This document shows positions 1 through 17,811 of a stretch of DNA of 25,360 nt, in pieces. The notes below the pieces were generated by a model. The model did not search any database, was not told the DNA's origin, and saw only the letters and a list, made by a program, of their open reading frames with translations. The first letter of the stretch is position 1. Every line of letters starts with the position of its first letter. The translations under genes and the position numbers were made by a program. The stretch is from a virus (lineage: Duplodnaviria > Heunggongvirae > Uroviricota > Caudoviricetes), in IMG/VR virus record IMGVR_UViG_2529292905_000020. One strand, 5' to 3'.

Positions 1-1284
1 TCAGTGTGGTACATGGATATCGATACCACGGCTAAGTATAAATCTGGTGTTACTACCGTGAAAGACTCGGTACGACTGGATCCGTGGGTGTTTATGTTCT
101 CCGCAGGATATCGTTTTTAATTTTCTCTGCAAAACCTCTGCAAAACTGGTCATCAAATGACCAGTTTTTTTCCATTCCTTACCGCGTGCGTCGTTGTAAA
201 TATCGGTCATTTTTTGATTCGAATGGCCTAGCAAAATTTTGGTATCAACCCCCTGCTCTCTGAACAATCGCTCTGATAAAGATCTCTGCTCATGGAAAGA
301 GGGTGGGGTGCCATTAGCACGCCAGTTGTAATCCACAGAATCCCGGGCTTTTTTAAATGCAACGGTTAATGTTGCTGGCTTAACCATCCCGCCGCGCTTA
401 GCTGTCCCTTTCGCGTGATGGTGGTGCAATAGCCACGGACTAAGAACGCAATCGCGGCAGGATGACACCACATCATCTAGGGTGAGATTTAATTTATCGC
501 AACGCAGAGCCAGAGGGATGGCAATCCGGGTTCCTGTTTTTTGCTGTTCGACATGACGATAACCATCCCGGATATCCGAAAATTGCATTTTGCAAATATC
601 TGAAAGGCGCTGGCCTGTCATCAGTGCCAGCAGCATACCGCGCTGTAAAAAGTAACCATCCTTTTCCGCTGCGTTATAAATCATCATCCACTCATCAAAA
701 GTCAGTCGCTGTCTTGATATCCGCACCTGCGGTTTTTTTGCAGATTCTGCAGGGTTAAAGCCTGGCGGGACATCGCCCGTTTGCTGAGCTTCCCGGAAAA
801 CATCGATCAGTACTTTCCTGAAAATTTGTCCCATTCTGTTATGTCCTCTGGCCTTGTACTCTTCCAGTACTGATACCACATCTTTTACGGTTATGGCATC
901 TAACGGTCTGGTGCCAAAACGTTCATCAAATACCCTGAGAGGGGCCGCTTTCTGTTTCAGCGTGTTGAGTTTGATTTCGCCGTTTTCATATCTTTCCTGT
1001 TGAATTTTTCTGTAATTATTCAGAAAAATGGTAACGGTTGATGAACCGCCGGTATCACTAATAATTTTCTCCTGCAGACTGAGCATTTGTTCCATTTGCT
1101 GCCGGGCAAGACGGCTGTTCGCTTCTGCTGCAATAGTTTCTGCCAGTTTCTGGTCAATACTGCCGAGACCGTGATTTTTGCCTGTTATGGGATGCCTGTA
1201 ACGCCAGTAAACTTTGTTATTTCTTTTGTCAAAATACGGAGATAATCCCGGAACATCGGTTTTATATTTTCGCGGGCGCGCCAT
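1..1284 (-). CDS. int: Phage integrase, tyrosine recombinase (lambda Int family)
   Basis: 427-aa ORF. C-terminal region resembles the lambda Int catalytic segment (...FHEQRSLSERLF...LLGHSNQKMTDIYNDARGKEWKK). Start overlaps the xis ORF as in lambda. Stop codon lies at window positions 1-3. About 60 aa extend beyond the Int-like homology. Confidence 0.9.
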   Translation of the reverse strand: MARPRKYKTDVPGLSPYFDKRNNKVYWRYRHPITGKNHGLGSIDQKLAETIAAEANSRLARQQMEQMLSLQEKIISDTGGSSTVTIFLNNYRKIQQERYENGEIKLNTLKQKAAPLRVFDERFGTRPLDAITVKDVVSVLEEYKARGHNRMGQIFRKVLIDVFREAQQTGDVPPGFNPAESAKKPQVRISRQRLTFDEWMMIYNAAEKDGYFLQRGMLLALMTGQRLSDICKMQFSDIRDGYRHVEQQKTGTRIAIPLALRCDKLNLTLDDVVSSCRDCVLSPWLLHHHHAKGTAKRGGMVKPATLTVAFKKARDSVDYNWRANGTPPSFHEQRSLSERLFREQGVDTKILLGHSNQKMTDIYNDARGKEWKKTGHLMTSFAEVLQRKLKTISCGEHKHPRIQSYRVFHGSNTRFILSRGIDIHVPH

Positions 1285-1510
1285 CTTCCAGTATCCTCTT
1301 CAAAGCAGGGTGATCTGTGGCGATCACCTCCGGCTTGTTTACCATTCCGACAAAGCGAGCTTGCGGATCCACTCGCCAGCGTCTTCCAACTTTTTTGGGG
1401 AGAGGAAATATCATTCCGGCTTTAGCGTATTTACTTAACGTACTCGGAGTAGGGACCGGTTCACTGAATTCCTCTTTTGCCCACTCAGTGAGCAGAATAA
1501 GTCTTGCCAT
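1262..1510 (-). CDS. xis: Excisionase (lambda Xis-like)
   Basis: 82-aa ORF immediately upstream of and overlapping int. Pattern L.EW...(basic)...IFPLPKKVGRRWRV resembles lambda Xis (LQEW...IFPPPVKDGREY). Confidence 0.75.
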   Translation of the reverse strand: MARLILLTEWAKEEFSEPVPTPSTLSKYAKAGMIFPLPKKVGRRWRVDPQARFVGMVNKPEVIATDHPALKRILEDGAPAKI

Positions 1511-1574: not shown

Positions 1575-4046
1575 TTAAAAATCAGCCTGATTCGGGAGCA
1601 GTTTTTGCCAGATAGTTGAAACGTATTTTGCCTGGTAACGGGCATCATCCAGCGCATTGTGGCGCTCACCTTCGAATGGGATAGCAGTTCTGGCATCGAA
1701 GTCTACGGCTTTCCCCAGCTCAACGATTGTGCGTACATCGCGATCGTTGCAGTAGCGCCACGGGCAGGGGATACCCTGTCGTTCGTATGAACGGCGCAAA
1801 ATAGTGTTGTCGAAGTTGGCCCCATTACCCCAGACCTGAACAAAAAACTCACCGGAGTTTTCGTCGATAAATTCCCGCAATTGCAGTAGTGCATCATCTA
1901 ACGGGATTTCATCGGTCATAATGGCAGACTGCGCTTCACGTGATTGCTTCAGCCACCATTTAATGACGTCACGATCAATGACTCCGCCAGCAGTATCCAG
2001 ATCGATGGTCTTGCTAAATTCTGGTCCCATATCTCCGGTTTGCGGATCGAAAAATATTGCGCCTATTGAGATAATCGGGGCATCGGGATTTTTTCCCATG
2101 GTTTCAAGGTCGATCATCAGATGAATCCCCGCTCTGCTGGTGGATGTGAGATTATGATGACTGTTCGCCTTAATTAAGGGATCTGACGCCTCGCCAGTTT
2201 CACTATCGCTGGCATGATGCTGATTGCCGCCAGTGTTCTCCTTGTGCTGATGTGCAGTACCTTCCATTTCCTCCGGATCATTTTCCTGAACTTCAGGCTG
2301 ATTCTCTTCATCGAATATTTCCTGGTATGTTGCGTCGCCCATCACCGCGCCACAATCAGGGCAGTTGCCGCCGCCGGTCTGACCGCAGGCGGTGCAGACT
2401 TTTTCCACTTCCTGTTGCGCCACTGGTTCAGGCTGTTTCGTTTCTGGCTCGTTTTGTAACGCATTTGGGCTGTTTTGTTCCGCTTTCTGGTCGTTCTGTT
2501 CCGTTTCTTGCTGGTTCTGGTTCACAGAATCGCGGGTTTCAATCCCCTTCACCCATTTCGGATCATTCGGGTCGCTAATCCCTGCAACAAATTCACCACG
2601 TGATGCGGCGAGCAACTGATTGGCGTCAGGCTGGCTGATATTGGCTGCCTGCATAATTTTCTTTACTTCGTCAGCGGTAACTTTTACCGGTTCTGGTTGT
2701 TCAGAATTTTGTGCGGTATTTGCATTTTGCGGTAAGCCTGTGTATGTGCCATTTTTTCGGGCAAAATATTCTTCTTTTGTGATTTCAGTAGCCCCGGCAG
2801 CCAGCGCCTTATCCAGACCAGAAAGTTTGTTTGCGCGACCGTATTTTTCGCAATCCTTGTCGGTGAAGAGGAAGTAGAACGGCCCCTCACGCTCTACAGA
2901 TGGTTCGACTTCCACTTTGCATTCGGTTTTTTCGTTGTCCGGAATTGCCGTTTCCACTGCATCAGTTTCTGGTACTGGCGACGAGAGAGTATCAGTTGCG
3001 CTCTGATTTCTTCCTTCATCTTCAAACACGCCCTTTGTAGTCAGGTATTCAGTAATGTATTTGTTCAGTGCCACAGGGTCTTTGTGAATGTCGATCGGAC
3101 GTTCACGGATAAGGCCAAAAATAGTCTGGCGGTCGTAGCGAAGGGCATCAGGCTGTTTGCGCATTGATGCCGAGATACGCTTCCAGTCTTCGCGGTCGTT
3201 GTCGATAACTTCATTTTTTGCCCAGCGATGGATGCTGCCGTCAATGTTTCCGGCATCCACATCACCAGGCCAGAGAGCGTAGGCCAGTTCGTCATCCAGT
3301 GTTTTCCATGTCTGCTTGTATTCGCGATGAATGGCAGCAATGACCGGGTTGATTTTTCCTGTTGAATTTTCAGTGTGCTGTTGATTGGCTCTGGCGCGGG
3401 CGAGATCAACAACAGACGTGTATTTTCCGGCTTCCTTGCGTTCACCTTCGCGACGTTTTTTCCAGATGCGCATCTCTGCCTGAATTTCGGGCCATTTGGC
3501 ACCAGGCTTACATTTATGCTTAACCCACCCGATGGCATGCAGCTTAAGCTCCGGATACATAGCGTTAACTTCTGGCATTTTCATCAACGCTTCAACGATA
3601 TGGCCGTCGAATGTTGCCATGTCTTCCTGCAACAATTCCTGTGCGCTAATCACCATATCAACAGTGATGTTTTCACATGTGTCGAACTTAACCATGACAG
3701 CGTTCTGTACTTCAGGGGCCAGCTTGTCAAAAGCGACGTTCATCGGATCTGATTCAGTCTCAACCGGGACAAAGGAAGCAGCCCCCTCATCCCAGCGGTT
3801 TTCCTGCATATATTCAGCATCCCAGGAATCGAGGGCAGGGCGGGGTATACCGGGTTTATCCTCGCAAACAAGAAATTTATAAGCGCAGTCCTGAGCAGCC
3901 GGATAATGCTCCAGGAATTGCCAGTGAAATTTTGCGCGGGCGCGACGTTCATCACCGGCTTCAATGGCAGTGGCTACAGCGACTGCACCTTCTTCCTTTA
4001 TTGCCTGTTCGTCCGGAATGGCGGCGCAAATAAAGACTTTACTCAT
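1575..4046 (-). CDS. Prophage exonuclease with C-terminal DnaQ-like (DEDDh) 3'-5' exonuclease domain
   Basis: 823-aa ORF. C-terminal ~180 aa carry Exo I/II/III-like motifs (MIDLETMG, WGNGANFD, HNALDDARY). Central CTACGQTGGGNCPDCG looks like a zinc ribbon, flanked by Q/E/N-rich linkers. N-terminal ~500 aa have no motif I recognise. Sits at the lambda exo position. Confidence 0.8.
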   Translation of the reverse strand: MSKVFICAAIPDEQAIKEEGAVAVATAIEAGDERRARAKFHWQFLEHYPAAQDCAYKFLVCEDKPGIPRPALDSWDAEYMQENRWDEGAASFVPVETESDPMNVAFDKLAPEVQNAVMVKFDTCENITVDMVISAQELLQEDMATFDGHIVEALMKMPEVNAMYPELKLHAIGWVKHKCKPGAKWPEIQAEMRIWKKRREGERKEAGKYTSVVDLARARANQQHTENSTGKINPVIAAIHREYKQTWKTLDDELAYALWPGDVDAGNIDGSIHRWAKNEVIDNDREDWKRISASMRKQPDALRYDRQTIFGLIRERPIDIHKDPVALNKYITEYLTTKGVFEDEGRNQSATDTLSSPVPETDAVETAIPDNEKTECKVEVEPSVEREGPFYFLFTDKDCEKYGRANKLSGLDKALAAGATEITKEEYFARKNGTYTGLPQNANTAQNSEQPEPVKVTADEVKKIMQAANISQPDANQLLAASRGEFVAGISDPNDPKWVKGIETRDSVNQNQQETEQNDQKAEQNSPNALQNEPETKQPEPVAQQEVEKVCTACGQTGGGNCPDCGAVMGDATYQEIFDEENQPEVQENDPEEMEGTAHQHKENTGGNQHHASDSETGEASDPLIKANSHHNLTSTSRAGIHLMIDLETMGKNPDAPIISIGAIFFDPQTGDMGPEFSKTIDLDTAGGVIDRDVIKWWLKQSREAQSAIMTDEIPLDDALLQLREFIDENSGEFFVQVWGNGANFDNTILRRSYERQGIPCPWRYCNDRDVRTIVELGKAVDFDARTAIPFEGERHNALDDARYQAKYVSTIWQKLLPNQADF

Positions 4047-4138
4047 TTTGTTTTACCTCATTACAGATTTAAGGGTGAACAAATCCCTGCCATTGCTGGC
4101 ATATAAGAATGAAATCGGATGTTTATTACGGAACTGTT

Positions 4139-4330
4139 TTAAAGACCTGCCGGGATTTCGTTATTATCCTGGTGAATAACTTTATCGACCGGGTAACAGT
4201 TACCGGGAATTTTCTGTTCGGTTGCTGCAGTCACACACTCCTGCATTGTCCTGTGAACACTGACTGCAATATCAACTGGCTCTCCGGAAACAAGAAAAAC
4301 TGTCAGAACAAGTGCAAATGCTGTATTCAT
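4139..4330 (-). CDS. ydfD: YdfD-like small protein (63 aa)
   Basis: Start chosen at internal ATG 4330 (MNTAFALVLTVFLVSG..., hydrophobic N-terminus), with AGGA 8 nt upstream. ATGA start/stop overlap with dicB. Sequence matches my recollection of Qin-prophage YdfD. Confidence 0.7.
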   Translation of the reverse strand: MNTAFALVLTVFLVSGEPVDIAVSVHRTMQECVTAATEQKIPGNCYPVDKVIHQDNNEIPAGL

Positions 4331-4515
4331 TGCCAGCATCCTTTTTGTATCGGACGTAAACGGGCCAGCATTGAAAGAATGCATATTTTATTTAATAACT
4401 CCCGTTCGTGTTTTCTCTTGTTAATGGCATCTTCAGTAAATACAGGGTTACTGATAGTGACACCAATTTCAAAACAACCTTCAGACGTATTAACGTTTGG
4501 TAATAACGTTTCCAT
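4327..4515 (-). CDS. dicB: DicB cell-division inhibitor (62 aa)
   Basis: METLLPNVNTSEGCFEIGVTISNPVFTEDAINKRKHERELLNKICILSMLARL... matches remembered DicB. GAGGA 7 nt upstream of ATG 4515. The ORF-track start at 4620 is probably an upstream extension. Confidence 0.85.
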   Translation of the reverse strand: METLLPNVNTSEGCFEIGVTISNPVFTEDAINKRKHERELLNKICILSMLARLRPIQKGCWQ

Positions 4516-4684
4516 TATCGCGTCCTCAACAATGAATTTTGTGATGCGGTGCCTGGTGCCTCCAGGTGACGTTAACCAGTTAACAATTAACGCCGGATAC
4601 AGTGAATCCCCCCATAACACTGTTTTTAGCTTTAACTGTTCCGCGTGCGCTTAGCCGCATTCACTGCATCACAAAATTCACTTT

Positions 4685-4740
4685 AAAAAGGGCGGACATC
4701 AGTTCATGGGCAAACAGATGCCGCCAAACGTCACCAGAAA
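4685..4740 (-). ncRNA. dicF: DicF-like small RNA
   Basis: Minus strand reads UUUCUGGUGACGUUUGGCGG (matches the DicF 5' region as I recall it), then a GGCGGCAUC...GAUGUCCGCC stem and CUUUUU. Lies just upstream of dicB as in Qin. Exact 5' and 3' ends are inferred. Confidence 0.75.
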
Positions 4741-5073
4741 ATTGATAACAGAGGGCGTTGCAGCGGGGTTGTCACTTAAGCGTATGGTCAACCTGACAAC
4801 CCGGTGTCCTCAACGGGGAAGGAATAACCCCGCCATACTTACCGCTGCGCCATTTCGCGGAGTGCCACAACCGGAAGCGCACGGTCGACGAAAATTTAAC
4901 GACAGGCTATCTATGAACCAGCAACCTCGCCGTGCGCTTTCGCGTTATGCTCTGACTTTTCAGAGAAATATCCTTTCAGTAAACTGTCAGTGCCGGATGT
5001 TCACCCGTGTCCGGCGCACGCACTCCACTTCACCCGTGGAGAACTCCTTAATTACCAACCCTCAGGAGGGTGA

Positions 5074-5307
5074 ATGTTAAAATCAACTCTTATTGCTAAA
5101 TGCCTTTATCAAAATCGCATGGTAAGCAGCATTTCAATAGGCGAGTCTGCAGTTAAAAGTATTTTCGAAGAGTACTTTCCCGGGCATGATTTTAATAAAT
5201 GGAATACCAAATTACCGCCAGCAGTTTCAACGCGTATTCTGAAAGCAACCGAAAGAGCAAGTACAATTCGCGTTAACTATTTCATTAAAGATTTGTGGGA
5301 TCTTTGA
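5074..5307 (+). CDS. Hypothetical protein (77 aa), antisense to the dicB operon
   Basis: ORF with AGGAGG 4 nt upstream of ATG 5074. AT-rich. 3' end overlaps the convergent 135-aa ORF by 23 nt. No recognised family. Confidence 0.3.
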   Translation: MLKSTLIAKCLYQNRMVSSISIGESAVKSIFEEYFPGHDFNKWNTKLPPAVSTRILKATERASTIRVNYFIKDLWDL

Positions 5308-5692
5308 TATCCACAGAGCCTAAAGTATGTGCATATGGATGTGCTATTATGCGCCCTCGCAGATTTGCATCATTTTCTAAATTCACTGAACGAAACAGGG
5401 CATCAACAAGGCTCTGTACAATGCAAAGGCAATCGAAGACTGTCGCCGTTTCTGTTTTGATTGATGAAAGAACATGGCCATTCACGCAAACAGAAATTAC
5501 CCGTTTATTAACATCGCTTTCCTGCTTTTGATTATCAGAACCATATAGCCCAGAAAAAGCATTGCGCACATTACGAACCATATTATCGATGGTTTCTTTT
5601 TCTGCGGTACTAAGGTCAAGAGTAGCCAGTTGTGAACGAACTATATTCGATGCCATTTCCTGTAATGGCGTTGGTAAATCTTTAAATTCCAT
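5285..5692 (-). CDS. Hypothetical protein (135 aa), AT-rich insert in the dicB operon
   Basis: ORF starts 20 nt downstream of ydfC with GAGG about 8 nt upstream of ATG 5692. AT-rich relative to neighbours. No recognised motif. Confidence 0.55.
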   Translation of the reverse strand: MEFKDLPTPLQEMASNIVRSQLATLDLSTAEKETIDNMVRNVRNAFSGLYGSDNQKQESDVNKRVISVCVNGHVLSSIKTETATVFDCLCIVQSLVDALFRSVNLENDANLRGRIIAHPYAHTLGSVDIKDPTNL

Positions 5693-5714
5693 TATTAGCC
5701 TCGTTGGTTAGCTA

Positions 5715-5933
5715 TTAACGTGGGTATGTAATCATTCTGGCAATGCTTAATGCCGCTGCTTTTTCCAGATTGGTGATATCCTGCTCCAGAGCGGACAGAT
5801 TTTCAGCCTGCTTAGCCCTGGCTTCATTGGCCCATTTCAGGTCCTGCACCGCCTTAATTTTCTGGTGCATCCACTCATAAAGTTCATCATCGGTATAGTC
5901 TGGCGCGATGATGACGGGGGCTCGTTTCTGCAT
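5715..5933 (-). CDS. ydfC: YdfC-like protein (72 aa)
   Basis: MQKRAPVIIAPDYTDDELYEWM...LSIARMITYPR matches my recollection of Qin YdfC. Same operon position. Confidence 0.7.
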   Translation of the reverse strand: MQKRAPVIIAPDYTDDELYEWMHQKIKAVQDLKWANEARAKQAENLSALEQDITNLEKAAALSIARMITYPR

Positions 5934-6005
5934 GTCGGCTCCTTGTGGTTAGCGTTGCCTGCTTTTTAACCACGTCAGGCGAGGTGGTATCCTCTGAGGG
6001 GTCTG

Positions 6006-6362
6006 TTACTCGAGAGGAAATTGGTTATGAATACAATCAAGTTTTCTTGCCCAGAATGTGGTGGCTAAGTCTTTGACACATCCTTTAAGCCGCAGGGCTC
6101 TGACAGTTTCGCGGGAGCCATCTGCAAAAATTGTGGTCACCTTGTAACTGAAGATGAGTCCTCGCAGTTCGATGACGAAATCGTTGACAATATCTTCGGT
6201 GCACTCACCAGAGACTTTCTGAAGTAAAGGCGCATACCGCTTAGTTACCGCTCTGATAACTCTTACCTGTCCGGCAATGGCGCTGATATCAATATAAAGC
6301 GCCATCGCTGTTTCTTTGCTGATCCCTGGACGCCTTCCATTCTGATGTTTGACTTCGCCCAC
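6006..6362 (-). CDS. Hypothetical protein (118 aa), first gene of the dicB-type operon
   Basis: GTG start at 6362 with GAGGA about 8 nt upstream. Possibly corresponds to the ydfA/ydfB region of K-12 Qin as a single ORF. Confidence 0.55.
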   Translation of the reverse strand: MGEVKHQNGRRPGISKETAMALYIDISAIAGQVRVIRAVTKRYAPLLQKVSGECTEDIVNDFVIELRGLIFSYKVTTIFADGSRETVRALRLKGCVKDLATTFWARKLDCIHNQFPLE

Positions 6363-6568: not shown

Positions 6569-6976
6569 TTATTTATTTGCGCTTCTTTTGCGAGCTTTGA
6601 GTAGTTCTTCAAAAAGTTTGTTGAAATTCTCAACTCGAGCACGCATCTCTGACAACAGAGCCTTTTGCTCTGACTCAGGCAGTGCGTCGAACAGTTGAAG
6701 CAACTCTTTTTGATCTTCTGTCAGATTGACTGGCTGATTATCTGGGATCGGTTCGCCTGGTTGCTTATCTTCATCTCCAAAAAGAAGCCAAGTCGGCGAG
6801 CACTGAAGCGCCTGGCTCAGTGCGAATAATCTCTTCCCCGCTGGCTGTGTTTCATCTCTTTCCCATTGAGAAATTGTTACGTGAGCCACTTTGACCAGCT
6901 TACCTAATGCGGCCTGAGACAGTTTTAATTTTTTTCGCCTGTATAAGAGGCGAGCACCGAAGGTTTCGTTTTTCAT
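6569..6976 (-). CDS. dicA: DicA repressor (HTH XRE family, cI-like)
   Basis: 135-aa ORF MKNETFGARLLYRRKKLKLSQAALGKLVKVAHVTISQWERDETQP... with a clear HTH motif. Divergent from dicC. Confidence 0.9.
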   Translation of the reverse strand: MKNETFGARLLYRRKKLKLSQAALGKLVKVAHVTISQWERDETQPAGKRLFALSQALQCSPTWLLFGDEDKQPGEPIPDNQPVNLTEDQKELLQLFDALPESEQKALLSEMRARVENFNKLFEELLKARKRSANK

Positions 6977-10744: not shown

Positions 10745-10908
10745 GTAAGGTTTATACTCTTCAATATGCGTATAATTTTCCTTATTTTGTTGACTTTAAA
10801 TAACAAGCTATGCACGAGGTAAAGTCGGATAAGTTTATCTGGATGTAATATATATTATTTGTAGTGTTTATAACTTTATTTCATGATAACCAATAAAAGG
10901 AGTTTTTT

Positions 10909-11667
10909 ATGAGGAACATAATGGCAGGTTTTTTAATATTCCTGTCTTCTGCTGCTTATGCTGATATCAATCTGTATGGTCCTGGTGGCCCGCATACAGC
11001 CTTGCTTGATGCAGCCAAACTTTATGCCGAAAAAACAGGTATTATAGTGAACGTTCATTACGGCCCACAGAACAAATGGAATGAAGATGCCAAAAAAAAT
11101 GCAGATATCTTGTTTGGCGCATCAGAACAATCTGCTCTGGCTATCATTCGGGACCATAAAGACAGCTTCAGTGAAAAAGATATTCAGCCTCTTTATCTGC
11201 GAAAAAGTATTTTACTGGTAAAGAAAGGTAATCCTAAAAATATCCGGAGTATTGACGACCTGACCAGACCTGGGATTGGCGTAATTGTTAATGATGGTGG
11301 TGGTACCAGTAATACATCAGGCACTGGCGTCTGGGAAGATATTGCCGGACGTAAAGGGAATATAGAAACTGTCGCCGCAATCCGAAAAAATATTATTTTA
11401 TATGCGCCCAATAGCGGAACTGCACGTAAGGCTCTTGAGAATCAGCCTGGAGCAGATGTCTGGATAACCTGGGCTGACTGGGCAGCCAGTAATCCAGAAA
11501 TTGGTGATGTCGTGGAAATAGCGCCAGACTACGTGATATGGCGTGATATGAACATTACAGTACGTCAGGATGCAAATGATGAAACCCGTCGATTTGCAGA
11601 ATGGCTACAAACCGATGAAGCGGCGCCTGCATTCAAAAAATATGGCTGGACCAGGAAAGGCACTTGA
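10909..11667 (+). CDS. Periplasmic substrate-binding protein, ModA/TupA-like type II fold, with Sec signal peptide
   Basis: 252-aa ORF, AAGGAG upstream. N-terminal signal peptide (MRNIMAGFLIFLSSAAYA then D). Colinear resemblance to E. coli ModA over the whole length (C-terminal FAEWLQTDEAAPAFKKYGW vs FYDYLKGPQAAEIFKRYGF). AT-rich codon usage. No adjacent ABC permease or ATPase gene. Confidence 0.8.
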   Translation: MRNIMAGFLIFLSSAAYADINLYGPGGPHTALLDAAKLYAEKTGIIVNVHYGPQNKWNEDAKKNADILFGASEQSALAIIRDHKDSFSEKDIQPLYLRKSILLVKKGNPKNIRSIDDLTRPGIGVIVNDGGGTSNTSGTGVWEDIAGRKGNIETVAAIRKNIILYAPNSGTARKALENQPGADVWITWADWAASNPEIGDVVEIAPDYVIWRDMNITVRQDANDETRRFAEWLQTDEAAPAFKKYGWTRKGT

Positions 11668-12002
11668 CATCCTCGTCCTTCAGGACGTGGATTCTTTTTC
11701 CGGATGCCGCGCCAGCGGCATGTAGGGGCAGCTCACAAAACGGAAAAAATTGTACGCTAAGCCTCGCCAGGTGAACTGAATTCATTCCGATATGGGAATT
11801 CCCATATCGGGCGAAAACGGTTTGCTGTAACGGCAGAGTTAAGTAGGATTGCTGCGGGTGCTTGAGGCTATCTGCCTCGGGCATGAACACCAACGGCAGA
11901 TAGATAAAAGCCCCACCCGACTATAAATCGAAGTGAGGCCCCTATATGCTCGTCACATATAGATTGCCTCTTACGGACCGAAAGGTCAAGGAGAAGCAGG
12001 CT

Positions 12003-12158
12003 ATGAAGCAGCAAAAGGCGATGTTAATCGCCCTGATCGTCATCTGTTTAACCGTCATAGTGACGGCACTGGTAACGAGGAAAGACCTCTGCGAGGTACG
12101 AATCCGAACCGGCCAGACGGAGGTCGCTGTCTTCACAGCTTACGAACCTGAGGAGTAA
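12003..12158 (+). CDS. hokD: Hok/Gef-family membrane toxin (51 aa)
   Basis: MKQQKAMLIALIVICLTVIVTALVTRKDLCEVRIRTGQTEVAVFTAYEPEE is a Hok-family sequence, matching my recollection of HokD/RelF. Structured leader and 3' fold-back complement present. Confidence 0.85.
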   Translation: MKQQKAMLIALIVICLTVIVTALVTRKDLCEVRIRTGQTEVAVFTAYEPEE

Positions 12159-12386: not shown

Positions 12387-13274
12387 TCAGGCTGCCAGAT
12401 CATCGTTTCTGATGGAAGCATAATAAGCTTTTTCTGCTTCTGCCGGAGGGATATGACCCAGCCTTCCCAGCAATCGTCGATTGTTATACCAGTCCACCCA
12501 CGTGAGTGTGGCCAGTTCCACTTCTGCACGGTTTTTCCAGCTCTTACGGTGTATTACCTCCGCTTTGTAAAGACCATTGATGCTCTCCGCCATCGCGTTG
12601 TCATACGAGTCACCTGTACTCCCTGTTGATGCCAGCAGTTTTGCTTCTTTTAGTCGCTCCGTATAGGCCAGTGATACATACTGAGAACCTTTATCACTGT
12701 GATGGACTGTGCCGGACGGCCGACGGGCCCACAACGCCTGCTCCAGTGCATCCAGCACGAATGTCGTTTCCATAGACGATGAGACTCGCCACCCCACGAT
12801 GCATCCGGCAAACACATCAATGATGAACGCCACATAGACGAAGCCCTGCCATGTGCTGACGTAAGTAAAATCAGCCACCCACAGCTGGTCAGGACGTTCT
12901 GCCACGAACTGACGGTTTACGCGGTCGCCTGCGGAAACGGCTTTCCGGCTGACGGTAGTACGGACCTTTTTACCCCGGAGAACACCGGCAAGTCCCATAA
13001 CCGCCATGAGGCGCGCCACTGTACATCTGGCCACCCTGATACCTTCGCGTAACAACTGGCGCCAGACTTTACGCACACCGTACACCTGATGATTTTCATC
13101 GTATACGCGCTGTATCTCTCTCTTCAGCCAGTCATCGCGCTGCGCACGGGCACTGCGTTTATCAGGATGATGTCGCTGTTGCTGACAGTGGTAATACGTT
13201 GACGGGGCAATATGCAGTTCACTGCATACCGGTCCGACCCCGTACTGCTCACGCAGCTTATCCAGCAGTGGCAT
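12387..13274 (-). CDS. IS629 transposase OrfB (DDE catalytic domain)
   Basis: 295-aa ORF with the IS3-family OrfB C-terminus (...LGHIPPAEAEKAYYASIRNDDLAA). Confidence 0.9.
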   Translation of the reverse strand: MPLLDKLREQYGVGPVCSELHIAPSTYYHCQQQRHHPDKRSARAQRDDWLKREIQRVYDENHQVYGVRKVWRQLLREGIRVARCTVARLMAVMGLAGVLRGKKVRTTVSRKAVSAGDRVNRQFVAERPDQLWVADFTYVSTWQGFVYVAFIIDVFAGCIVGWRVSSSMETTFVLDALEQALWARRPSGTVHHSDKGSQYVSLAYTERLKEAKLLASTGSTGDSYDNAMAESINGLYKAEVIHRKSWKNRAEVELATLTWVDWYNNRRLLGRLGHIPPAEAEKAYYASIRNDDLAA

Positions 13275-13600
13275 TATTTTTTCCAGAGGCGGTCGAACTC
13301 CGCCTTCGCAAAATAAGCGGAAGCCTGGCGAAGGATATCGTTACTGCGGCGCAGTTCACGATTTTCACGTTCCAGCTCTTTCAGACGCTGACGTTCAGCG
13401 GTGGTGAATCCACCATCACCACTCCCGGTATCCCGCTCATGCTGACGAACCCACACACGCAGAGTCTCTGGCGTACAGCCAATCTTTGGGGCAATGGAAC
13501 AAATTGCCGCCCATTGTGAGTCATATTCGCCCTGACTTTCCAGAACCATACGAACTGCCCGTTGACGGACCTCGGGGGAAAAACGTGTATTTTTAGTCAT
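13274..13600 (-). CDS. IS629 transposase OrfA (HTH)
   Basis: 108-aa [22 protein letters not shown]... matching remembered IS629 OrfA. Its stop overlaps the OrfB ATG (TAATG) beside an A6 run. Confidence 0.9.
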
Positions 13601-16601: not shown

Positions 16602-16677
16602 GGCCCTTTAGCTCAGTGGTGAGAGCGAGCGACTCATAATCGCCAGGTCGCTGGTTCAAATCCAGCAAGGGCCACCA
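16602..16677 (+). tRNA. ileZ: tRNA-Ile2 (anticodon CAU, lysidine type)
   Basis: 76-nt cloverleaf. Acceptor GGCCCTT/AAGGGCC, anticodon loop CUCAUAA, T-loop TTCAAAT, encoded CCA. Closely resembles E. coli ileX. Confidence 0.9.
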
Positions 16678-16680
16678 ACC

Positions 16681-16754
16681 GCCACCAGCCATCAGGAAAG
16701 AGCGTCAACCCTTTAAGTTGAGTGTGCGAGGTTCGAGTCCCCGGTGGTGGTCCA
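16681..16754 (+). tRNA. Atypical tRNA-like sequence (degenerate argN-like?)
   Basis: Acceptor and T-arm can be drawn (T-loop TTCGAGT). Anticodon stem TCAAC/GTTGA with loop CCTTTAA (C at position 33, anticodon UUU by position). No canonical D-stem. Identity uncertain. Confidence 0.35.
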
Positions 16755-16767
16755 TTATCGGTATTCT

Positions 16768-16841
16768 GCGTTGTTAGCTCAGCAGGACAGAGCAATTGCC
16801 TTCTAAGCAATCGGTCACTGGTTCGACTCCAGTACAACGCG
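16768..16841 (+). tRNA. argO: tRNA-Arg (anticodon UCU)
   Basis: 74-nt cloverleaf. Acceptor GCGTTGT/ACAACGC, D-stem GCTC/GAGC, anticodon stem ATTGC/GCAAT with loop CTTCTAA, T-arm ACTGG-TTCGACT-CCAGT. 3' CCA not encoded. The argO name is positional (third tRNA of the Stx-phage-type trio). Confidence 0.85.
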
Positions 16842-17610: not shown

Positions 17611-17811
17611 TTTTTTTGTTTGCTGTTTATTAAAAACACTTCTGCATGGTGAATCCCCCTGTGCGGTGGGGCAATCAGCAAGAAGGAATATGGGGTAATC
17701 GCGGATTCAGGTGCTGATACTGAATTCACCGGGAGGCACCCGGCACCATGCTTTGCCACAAAAGTGTTATTTCTGTTTTTCTCAAACTATCATCGTTATC
17801 CCTTTATTTTC

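Follow-up and report, generated by a model that had tools for sequence, protein, structure and literature searches.

A putative RecE derivative with an exchanged nuclease domain is encoded by the intact ydfE gene of Escherichia coli lambdoid prophages

The locus and its ydfE homologue

The 25,360-nucleotide stretch of DNA analysed here (IMG/VR record IMGVR_UViG_2529292905_000020; hereafter the window) comes from a lambdoid prophage beside ompW in Escherichia coli O55:H7 USDA5905, of which it covers the left arm and the early region; it corresponds to the reverse complement of positions 2982098-3007457 of NZ_CP039837.1. On its minus strand, between ydfD and xis, lies an open reading frame (ORF) of 823 codons that starts at ATG and whose product is 100% identical to the RefSeq protein WP_174846743.1 ('exonuclease') of USDA5905. 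The protein is a three-part mosaic, in which a YdfE chassis (residues 1-473) is followed by the zinc-ribbon/acidic linker of RecE (residues 474-625) and by a DEDDh exonuclease domain (residues 642-813) in place of the 5'-3' nuclease of RecE. As judged from sequence comparison, this architecture and these homologies are near certain.

The downstream neighbours of the ORF are xis and int, and no gene lies between the ORF and xis, the slot that recT occupies in Rac. Upstream lie ydfD and dicB (Table 1). Beyond dicB, the minus strand carries several small ORFs, ydfC and then the DicA/CI-like repressor gene, and past the repressor the plus strand takes over with cro-like, ydaT-like and replication genes. 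The order dicB-ydfD-ydfE is the same as in K-12 Qin, and the position of the ORF, between the kil/dicB genes and xis-int, is that of recE in Rac and exo in lambda. The order int-xis-ORF-ydfD-dicB on the minus strand agrees with the original prediction, which was made from the sequence without database searches and had placed the gene in the early-left region. The K-12 Qin pseudogene ydfE (b1577) matches residues 1-256 with 96% identity, and this identity, together with the shared gene order, indicates that the window holds a complete ydfE. The K-12 gene belongs to the same operon but is truncated by IS2E after residue 256 and lacks chassis modules B and C (described below), the RecE linker and the exonuclease.

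The ORF is real, intact and under purifying selection. A match to PHROG 2082 spans the full length of the protein, and the same unbroken frame, of 823-826 aa, recurs in the phages mEp460, Tritos and Evi. Pairwise dN/dS is 0.22-0.31 for the whole gene; it is 0.05-0.20 in modules A and C and the exonuclease (module C, 0.05-0.16; exonuclease domain, 0.09-0.18) versus 0.29-0.79 in the linkers. As the conserved frame and these ratios show, the ORF is neither a chance reading frame nor a fusion artefact of two genes, the latter having been named as a possible source of error. Of the 5426 complete E. coli genomes scanned, 3532 (65%) contain at least 80% of the gene; where the gene matches at all, the median is two places per genome, and the USDA5905 record has five.

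Despite purifying selection on the intact copies, decay of the gene is recurrent. In addition to the K-12 truncation, the copy in O26 PPompW has a 4-bp deletion, Shigella flexneri carries multiple fragments, the gene of phage 606R7 is split into two coding sequences, and a Stx2a phage copy has an in-frame stop and an IS3-like truncation (loci of disrupted copies: L038 1688-4155; L039 5972-8041; L045 6297-8245; L005 5001-7444). The frequency of such copies would be expected if the gene were a functionless remnant in decaying prophages. This explanation is hardly credible, given the low dN/dS of the folded modules, the retention of all catalytic residues and the presence of the intact gene in isolated plaque-forming temperate phages.

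Table 1. Features of the early-left region, with positions in the window
Feature	Position	Strand	Remark
int	1-1284	-	Downstream neighbour; RefSeq annotation
xis	1262-1510	-	Downstream neighbour of the 823-aa ORF
823-aa exonuclease ORF (intact ydfE homologue)	1575-4046	-	Stop codon at 1575-1577; RefSeq 'exonuclease'
DEDDh (Rv2179c/DexA/EcD-like) exonuclease domain, residues 642-813	1608-2123	-	Pfam PF16473
RecE-derived linker, residues 474-625	2172-2627	-	Ends at the nuclease-domain junction
Zinc ribbon CxxC-x7-CxxC, residues 551-565	2352-2396	-	Reads CTACGQTGGGNCPDC
Chassis module C, residues 388-432	2751-2885	-	Beta-beta-alpha-beta-alpha unit; AlphaFold2 pLDDT ~84
Chassis module B, residues ~245-340	3027-3314	-	Helical; AlphaFold2 pLDDT ~84; BLASTP and NCBIfam alignments
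Chassis module A, residues 1-205	3432-4046	-	YdfE-type N-terminus; AlphaFold2 pLDDT ~90
GAGG ribosome-binding site	4056-4059	-	9 nt 5' of the ATG; read from the sequence
ydfD (DUF1482 lysis protein)	4139-4330	-	Pfam match; upstream of the exonuclease ORF
dicB	4327-4515	-	Pfam match; upstream of ydfD
DicA/CI-like repressor gene	6569-6976	-	RefSeq annotation; marks the immunity region

Chassis, RecE linker and exonuclease domain

Homology to RecE runs through the middle of the protein. Residues 474-624 are 72% identical over 151 aa to residues 471-614 of Rac-SA53 RecE, and residues 262-625 align with residues 278-591 of K-12 RecE (both by BLASTP). The homology ends at K-12 residue 591, shortly ahead of the RecE nuclease domain (606-866). 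The NCBIfam RecE equivalog NF007259 is matched by residues 245-626 at profile positions 270-603 of 877, which are its non-catalytic positions (267.9 bits versus a cutoff of 1269). At the nucleotide level, the segment for residues ~484-622 is ~83% identical to Rac-SA53 recE (megablast, query nt 605-1020), which suggests a fairly recent exchange at the linker. A zinc ribbon of the form CxxC-x9-CxxC had been predicted; the ribbon is indeed present, and all four of its cysteines are conserved in RecE, but the spacer has seven residues, not nine. The acidic, Q-rich linkers described with it are confirmed by composition: residues 474-550 contain 19% D/E and 25% Q/N, and residues 571-640 contain 23% D/E.

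The nuclease of RecE is absent. Its PD-(D/E)xK domain (K-12 residues 606-866) has no phmmer match in the 823-aa protein, and Exonuc_VIII (PF06630) gave no Pfam match at E<=1, whereas the same domain was detected in a relative (P0236). Rac RecE shares with the window protein the operon slot between kil-type genes and xis-int, the homologous middle and the zinc-ribbon/acidic linker; it differs in having a PD-(D/E)xK 5'-3' nuclease, a PF06630 N-terminus and recT following. The presence of RecE's own zinc ribbon and acidic linkers, and the equivalog match at residues 245-626, show that the protein is a RecE derivative with a swapped nuclease and not a protein unrelated to RecE. A large, non-catalytic N-terminal part with no assigned function is a further feature common to the two (PMC11611040).

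The C-terminal domain matches PF16473 at E=2e-65 (220.3 bits versus a cutoff of 27) over profile positions 2-177 of 177, and the catalytic residues D646, E648, D746, H796 and D801 align with D7, E9, D119, H186 and D191 of T4 DexA. This match and the missing RecE nuclease bear out the original prediction of a DEDDh 3'-5' exonuclease fold distinct from that of lambda-Exo and RecE; the 3'-5' polarity is predicted by homology to the DEDDh family. The only solved structures detectable by sequence are those of DexA (8KEL/8KEN, E=1.5e-6). Rv2179c, the Mycobacterium tuberculosis founder of PF16473, stands alone as a small protein and has been described as an exoribonuclease. The window domain shares with Rv2179c the PF16473 membership and the DEDDh catalytic motif, but it is not a stand-alone protein and showed no sequence match to the Rv2179c PDB entries at E<=10.

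The name of the family ('3'-5' exoribonuclease Rv2179c-like'), the label '3'-5' exoribonuclease' given to many orthologues by NCBI, and the processed small RNA (sRNA) DicF yielded by the neighbouring operon in related phages would fit an exoribonuclease that, like Rv2179c, trims or degrades host or phage RNAs or short oligoribonucleotides in lytic development. Such a role is unlikely. The similarity to solved structures reaches DexA only, on its RecE scaffold the domain stands in place of a DNA exonuclease, and the database name was transferred by homology. Furthermore, the closer characterised relatives act on DNA: DexA and its E. coli homologue EcD are reported to be DNA exonucleases, of which EcD cuts only DNA containing 5-hydroxymethylcytosine (5hmC) and protects against T4 (PMC12153337, published in 2025). 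The proximity to DexA and EcD rather than to Rv2179c suggests that DNA is the more fitting substrate.

By means of the primers of the same paper, a 189-aa stand-alone gene that fits EcD was found on IMG/VR viral contigs. Its product has A78 opposite D90 of DexA, and the 3' end of the gene equals the reverse primer except for one base. The possibility that EcD is the C-terminal domain of the window protein was rejected, because the supplement primers match this distinct gene. The window domain, which is 37% identical to the EcD-like protein, is thus a relative of EcD and not EcD itself. DexA and EcD belong to the same DEDDh subfamily (PF16473), with all catalytic residues aligned, but they are stand-alone proteins (227 and 189 aa), whereas the window domain is the C-terminal quarter of a protein of 823 aa. 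Where DexA has its proposed 5hmC readers W152 and D169, the window protein has C766 and K779 and the EcD-like protein W132 and E145, while D90 of DexA (the 'tetramer' residue), which EcD has lost, is retained as D718 in the window protein. With the reader residues replaced and D718 retained, the HREX mechanism reported for EcD is not simply transferable to the window protein; the residue assignments of the HREX paper rest partly on simulation and are used with caution here (PMC12153337). The EcD-like gene is situated at 5679-6248 (minus strand) of L028, and the same gene is found in L010, L015, L025, L026 and L031. It adjoins a 326-aa ORF whose N-terminus is Dam-methyltransferase-like by eye only. 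The occurrence of the gene on viral contigs suggests that EcD belongs to phages or prophages and is not a core defence gene of bacteria.

The N-terminal ~500 residues had been described as free of recognisable motifs. This does not hold: residues 1-256 are those of YdfE, part of the region is homologous to the non-catalytic region of RecE, and the databases give the Pfam families YdfE_N (PF27430) and YdfE_C (PF27432), an assignment made via relatives 87-96% identical over residues 1-473 on which the matches are precomputed. A search of the literature found no function described for either family; the N-terminus maps only to named, uncharacterised families and not to a characterised domain. In an AlphaFold2 model of residues 1-473, built from 43 sequences, with a mean predicted local distance difference test score (pLDDT) of 74, three confident modules are joined by disordered linkers. 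Module A is modelled as an alpha/beta subdomain (residues 1-95) followed by a helical subdomain (residues 110-205). These first ~200 residues are YdfE-type, whereas RecE has the PF06630 Exonuc_VIII domain there. Module B is weakly homologous to the middle of RecE (K-12 RecE ~278-350). Module C contains the motifs GPFY (388-391), RANK (404-407) and EI (421-422), which are invariant in an alignment of DEDDh-type relatives and type-3 relatives (defined below). The module is also matched by relatives that combine a RecE nuclease with a YdfE-type N-terminus, but it is unmatched by RecE-type N-termini (Rac RecE, P0129). Module C is a candidate partner-binding or DNA-binding element.

Exchange of C-terminal domains and annealase partners

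A search with residues 1-640 over 1.84 billion representative proteins returned 253 relatives at E<=0.001, and a scan of species-representative genomes gave 15 loci, all in Enterobacterales. The long relatives were classed by phmmer against each module. Two kinds of N-terminus occur, YdfE-type and RecE-type (PF06630), and each is paired with more than one of four C-terminal types. The DEDDh C-terminus is joined to a YdfE-type N-terminus in the window protein and P0026, and to a RecE-type N-terminus in P0129 and phage 689R5 (L040). Likewise, the PD-(D/E)xK C-terminus of RecE follows a YdfE-type N-terminus in P0132 and L059-L061 and a RecE-type N-terminus in Rac. A third type (type-3), with a C-terminal domain of ~285 aa, occurs in Enterobacter, Klebsiella, Salmonella, Pantoea, Erwinia and Serratia, and a fourth, with an unrecognised domain, in P0125 and P0257. 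The combination of a YdfE chassis with a RecE nuclease had no full-length match in the phage collection; this architecture was later found in IMG/VR contigs. Chassis and C-terminal effector have been exchanged independently among these relatives.

The type-3 proteins (~690-800 aa; PHROG 2489; for example L034 5001-7340, L046-L055 and L062) are labelled 'exodeoxyribonuclease VIII'. They resemble the window protein in the YdfE_N/YdfE_C chassis, which is 33-48% identical over residues 1-473, in the GPFY...RANK module and in the slot upstream of xis-int, but their C-terminal domain has no nuclease signature. This domain gave sub-threshold Pfam matches to Rad52_Rad22 in 13 of 18 members (best E=0.0024), and its invariant motif DGEAxKKSLTDAxKKALSxLGFSADVxLGLYD resembles RAD52 sequence. 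An hhalign comparison with residues 1-210 of human RAD52, a sequence that agrees with the PDB, is colinear over 111 columns with 27% identity but weak (E=0.021, probability 2.3%). With the type-3 domain as query, Foldseek gave no match at E<=0.001 and a profile search of the PDB returned nothing relevant. The type-3 genes are followed by an ORF of 166-197 aa; at L034/L035, the only type-3 locus with Pfam-annotated neighbours, the chassis gene lies between a Gam-like gene on its upstream side and this downstream ORF, which is Gp157-like. The type-3 C-terminus is hypothesised to be a probable Rad52-like annealase, a proposal kept at that level because the Pfam matches are sub-threshold and the hhalign alignment is weak, and the label 'exodeoxyribonuclease VIII' is probably wrong for these proteins. 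If the Rad52-like assignment is correct, the same chassis bears either an annealase or a nuclease of one or the other polarity (5'-3' or 3'-5'), which would argue for a shared, recombination-related function of the chassis.

The partner genes differ with the C-terminal type. In all three loci of the RecE-nuclease type with readable downstream sequence (L004, L060, L061), recT lies immediately after the nuclease gene, whereas no RecT/Bet homologue was found in any of the seven DEDDh loci (the window, L002, L036, L037, L040, L041 and L042); where the downstream genes of DEDDh loci were identified, xis and int follow directly. The original prediction had noted that the gene has no adjacent annealing protein and is not half of an exo-bet pair. 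This stands, since no RecT/Bet-like gene occurs on either side up to ydfD or xis, and the PGAP annotation shows no annealase anywhere in the prophage of the window.

The protein might still be half of a two-component recombinase, with the annealase supplied from another part of the prophage or by another resident prophage. Strains of this kind carry several lambdoid prophages, the USDA5905 record has five matching places, and relatives with the same chassis bear a RecE nuclease followed by RecT. In the known exonuclease/annealase pairs, however, a 5'-3' exonuclease leaves a 3' tail for the annealase, and the polarity expected of a DEDDh enzyme is the opposite. The DEDDh loci described above lack RecT/Bet homologues, the prophage annotation names no annealase, and no hypothetical ORF of the left operon exceeds 135 aa or has a Pfam match; this arrangement is highly unlikely.

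Expression, proposed function and minor features of the prophage

In K-12, the dicBF transcript runs from dicBp, a DicA-repressed analogue of pL, through ydfABC, dicF, dicB and ydfDE, and only DicB, DicF and YdfD are described as characterised products of this operon (PMC10448788, published in 2023). A literature search that included the angle of Rv2179c-like proteins in phages found no experimental study of YdfE. By analogy with K-12, a leftward promoter of the dicBp/pL type should lie between the repressor gene (6569-6976) and the early-left genes of the window. Around the exonuclease gene itself, promoter- and terminator-like sites are no more numerous than in shuffled sequence. Within the 92 nt that separate ydfD from the exonuclease gene, a weak terminator-like hairpin, TGCCAGCAATGGCA, with a T-rich tail is situated at 4088-4101 (minus strand). 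DicF had no Rfam match at the gathering threshold between dicB and ydfC (window 4516-5714). In K-12 Qin and phage Tritos this interval is occupied by dicF, unlike in the window, where it contains ORFs of 135 aa (5285-5692, minus strand) and 77 aa (5074-5307, plus strand), both without a Pfam match.

The protein may be an early-left exonuclease acting on DNA 3' ends in phage DNA metabolism or recombination, a reading, based on homology and gene position, whose chances of being right or wrong are judged about equal. On derepression of the DicA/CI-like repressor, the protein would be made together with DicB and YdfD. The chassis would take the effector to the DNA ends or the partner protein that also serve RecE and the annealase-bearing relatives, and the DEDDh domain would strip nucleotides from the 3' ends of DNA, either at duplex ends or on single-stranded tails. 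The enzyme would thus process ends as a single component relying on host recombination functions, and not as half of an exonuclease/annealase pair.

Several points weigh against this role. A 3'-5' exonuclease destroys the 3' tails that are used by RecA and annealases, so its value for recombination is not obvious. The family PF16473 is named after an exoribonuclease. Transcription from a pL/dicBp-type promoter is extrapolated from K-12 Qin, where ydfE is truncated. Finally, the prophage in the window looks defective: its DnaT-like replication gene and its portal gene contain frameshifts, and it has taken up an IS110-family element. The exonuclease gene has nonetheless stayed intact in this setting, and selection at the level of the host could be responsible instead.

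The persistence of an intact gene in an otherwise decayed prophage also fits the strongest rival, a nuclease for prophage defence or superinfection exclusion, in which the chassis would direct the DEDDh domain to injected linear DNA and incoming, possibly modified, phage DNA would be degraded from its 3' ends. The relationship to EcD, with its reported digestion of 5hmC DNA and protection against T4, and the occurrence of the gene in most complete E. coli genomes, typically at two places, are in its favour, as is the report that DicB, from the same operon, blocks infection by ManXYZ-dependent phages (PMC10448788). On the other hand, the 5hmC-reader positions of DexA are not kept (C766, K779) and D718 is, the gene belongs to an early-left operon under repressor control and shows no above-chance signal for a separate promoter, PADLOC returns a generic DEDDh match only, and the closest architectural relatives adjoin recombination genes (RecT, Gam-like, Gp157). 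A defence role is possible but tentative. The findings raise the question of whether this phage early protein accounts for most of the many E. coli 'DexA homologues' recently put forward as anti-T4 defence.

Under a broader and doubtful proposal, the N-terminal region of YdfE and RecE would be a general adaptor by which exchangeable DNA-end effectors, be they annealases or nucleases of 5'-3' or 3'-5' polarity, are brought to a common host protein or DNA structure. If this were true, the Escherichia-specific DEDDh form would be a one-protein system for removing 3' tails, which could steer or block recombination by the host and by competitors or clear DNA species that trigger defence. It would represent a mode of phage end processing without a described counterpart among Red or RecET systems, and the long-unexplained N-terminal 600 residues of RecE would gain a function.

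The family itself is already catalogued, although inconsistently annotated (PHROG 2082; YdfE_N, YdfE_C and PF16473). What is new is the proposed reading as a RecE-derived scaffold with an exchanged nuclease of predicted opposite polarity and without an annealase, and not a new kind of system; the findings do not force a surprising mechanism. As the intact counterpart of the K-12 pseudogene, the gene counts among the most widespread uncharacterised prophage genes of E. coli, and its product is extremely common. Its database names conflict ('exodeoxyribonuclease VIII', '3'-5' exoribonuclease', 'exonuclease'), and the domain map shows which parts of each apply. The protein also bears on the N-terminus of RecE, in that this unexplained part, which is relevant to linear-linear recombineering, gains natural domain-swap variants. 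In the mining of genomes for recombineering tools, it is relevant that many 'exonuclease VIII' proteins of Enterobacterales carry a probable annealase and not a nuclease.

Other features were noted in the remainder of the window. A low-GC cargo segment in the replication/nin region (10888-11646; GC 0.39-0.44) contains paa, an adhesin gene of the AcfC family, and a fimbrial gene with a frameshift, and is followed by a hokD/sok toxin-antitoxin pair (11856-12137), with the sok RNA placed at 11856-12005 by Rfam. The Rfam ALIL pseudoknot has a full-length match of 120.9 bits at 13203-13319 on the minus strand, a position that, mapped onto the coordinates of the RefSeq record, falls within the gene of a DUF968 domain protein. 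Downstream of the Q antiterminator region, two tRNA genes, labelled tRNA-Ile and tRNA-Arg by RefSeq, and a match to the STnc100 sRNA lie at 16602-16841 and 17615-17787.

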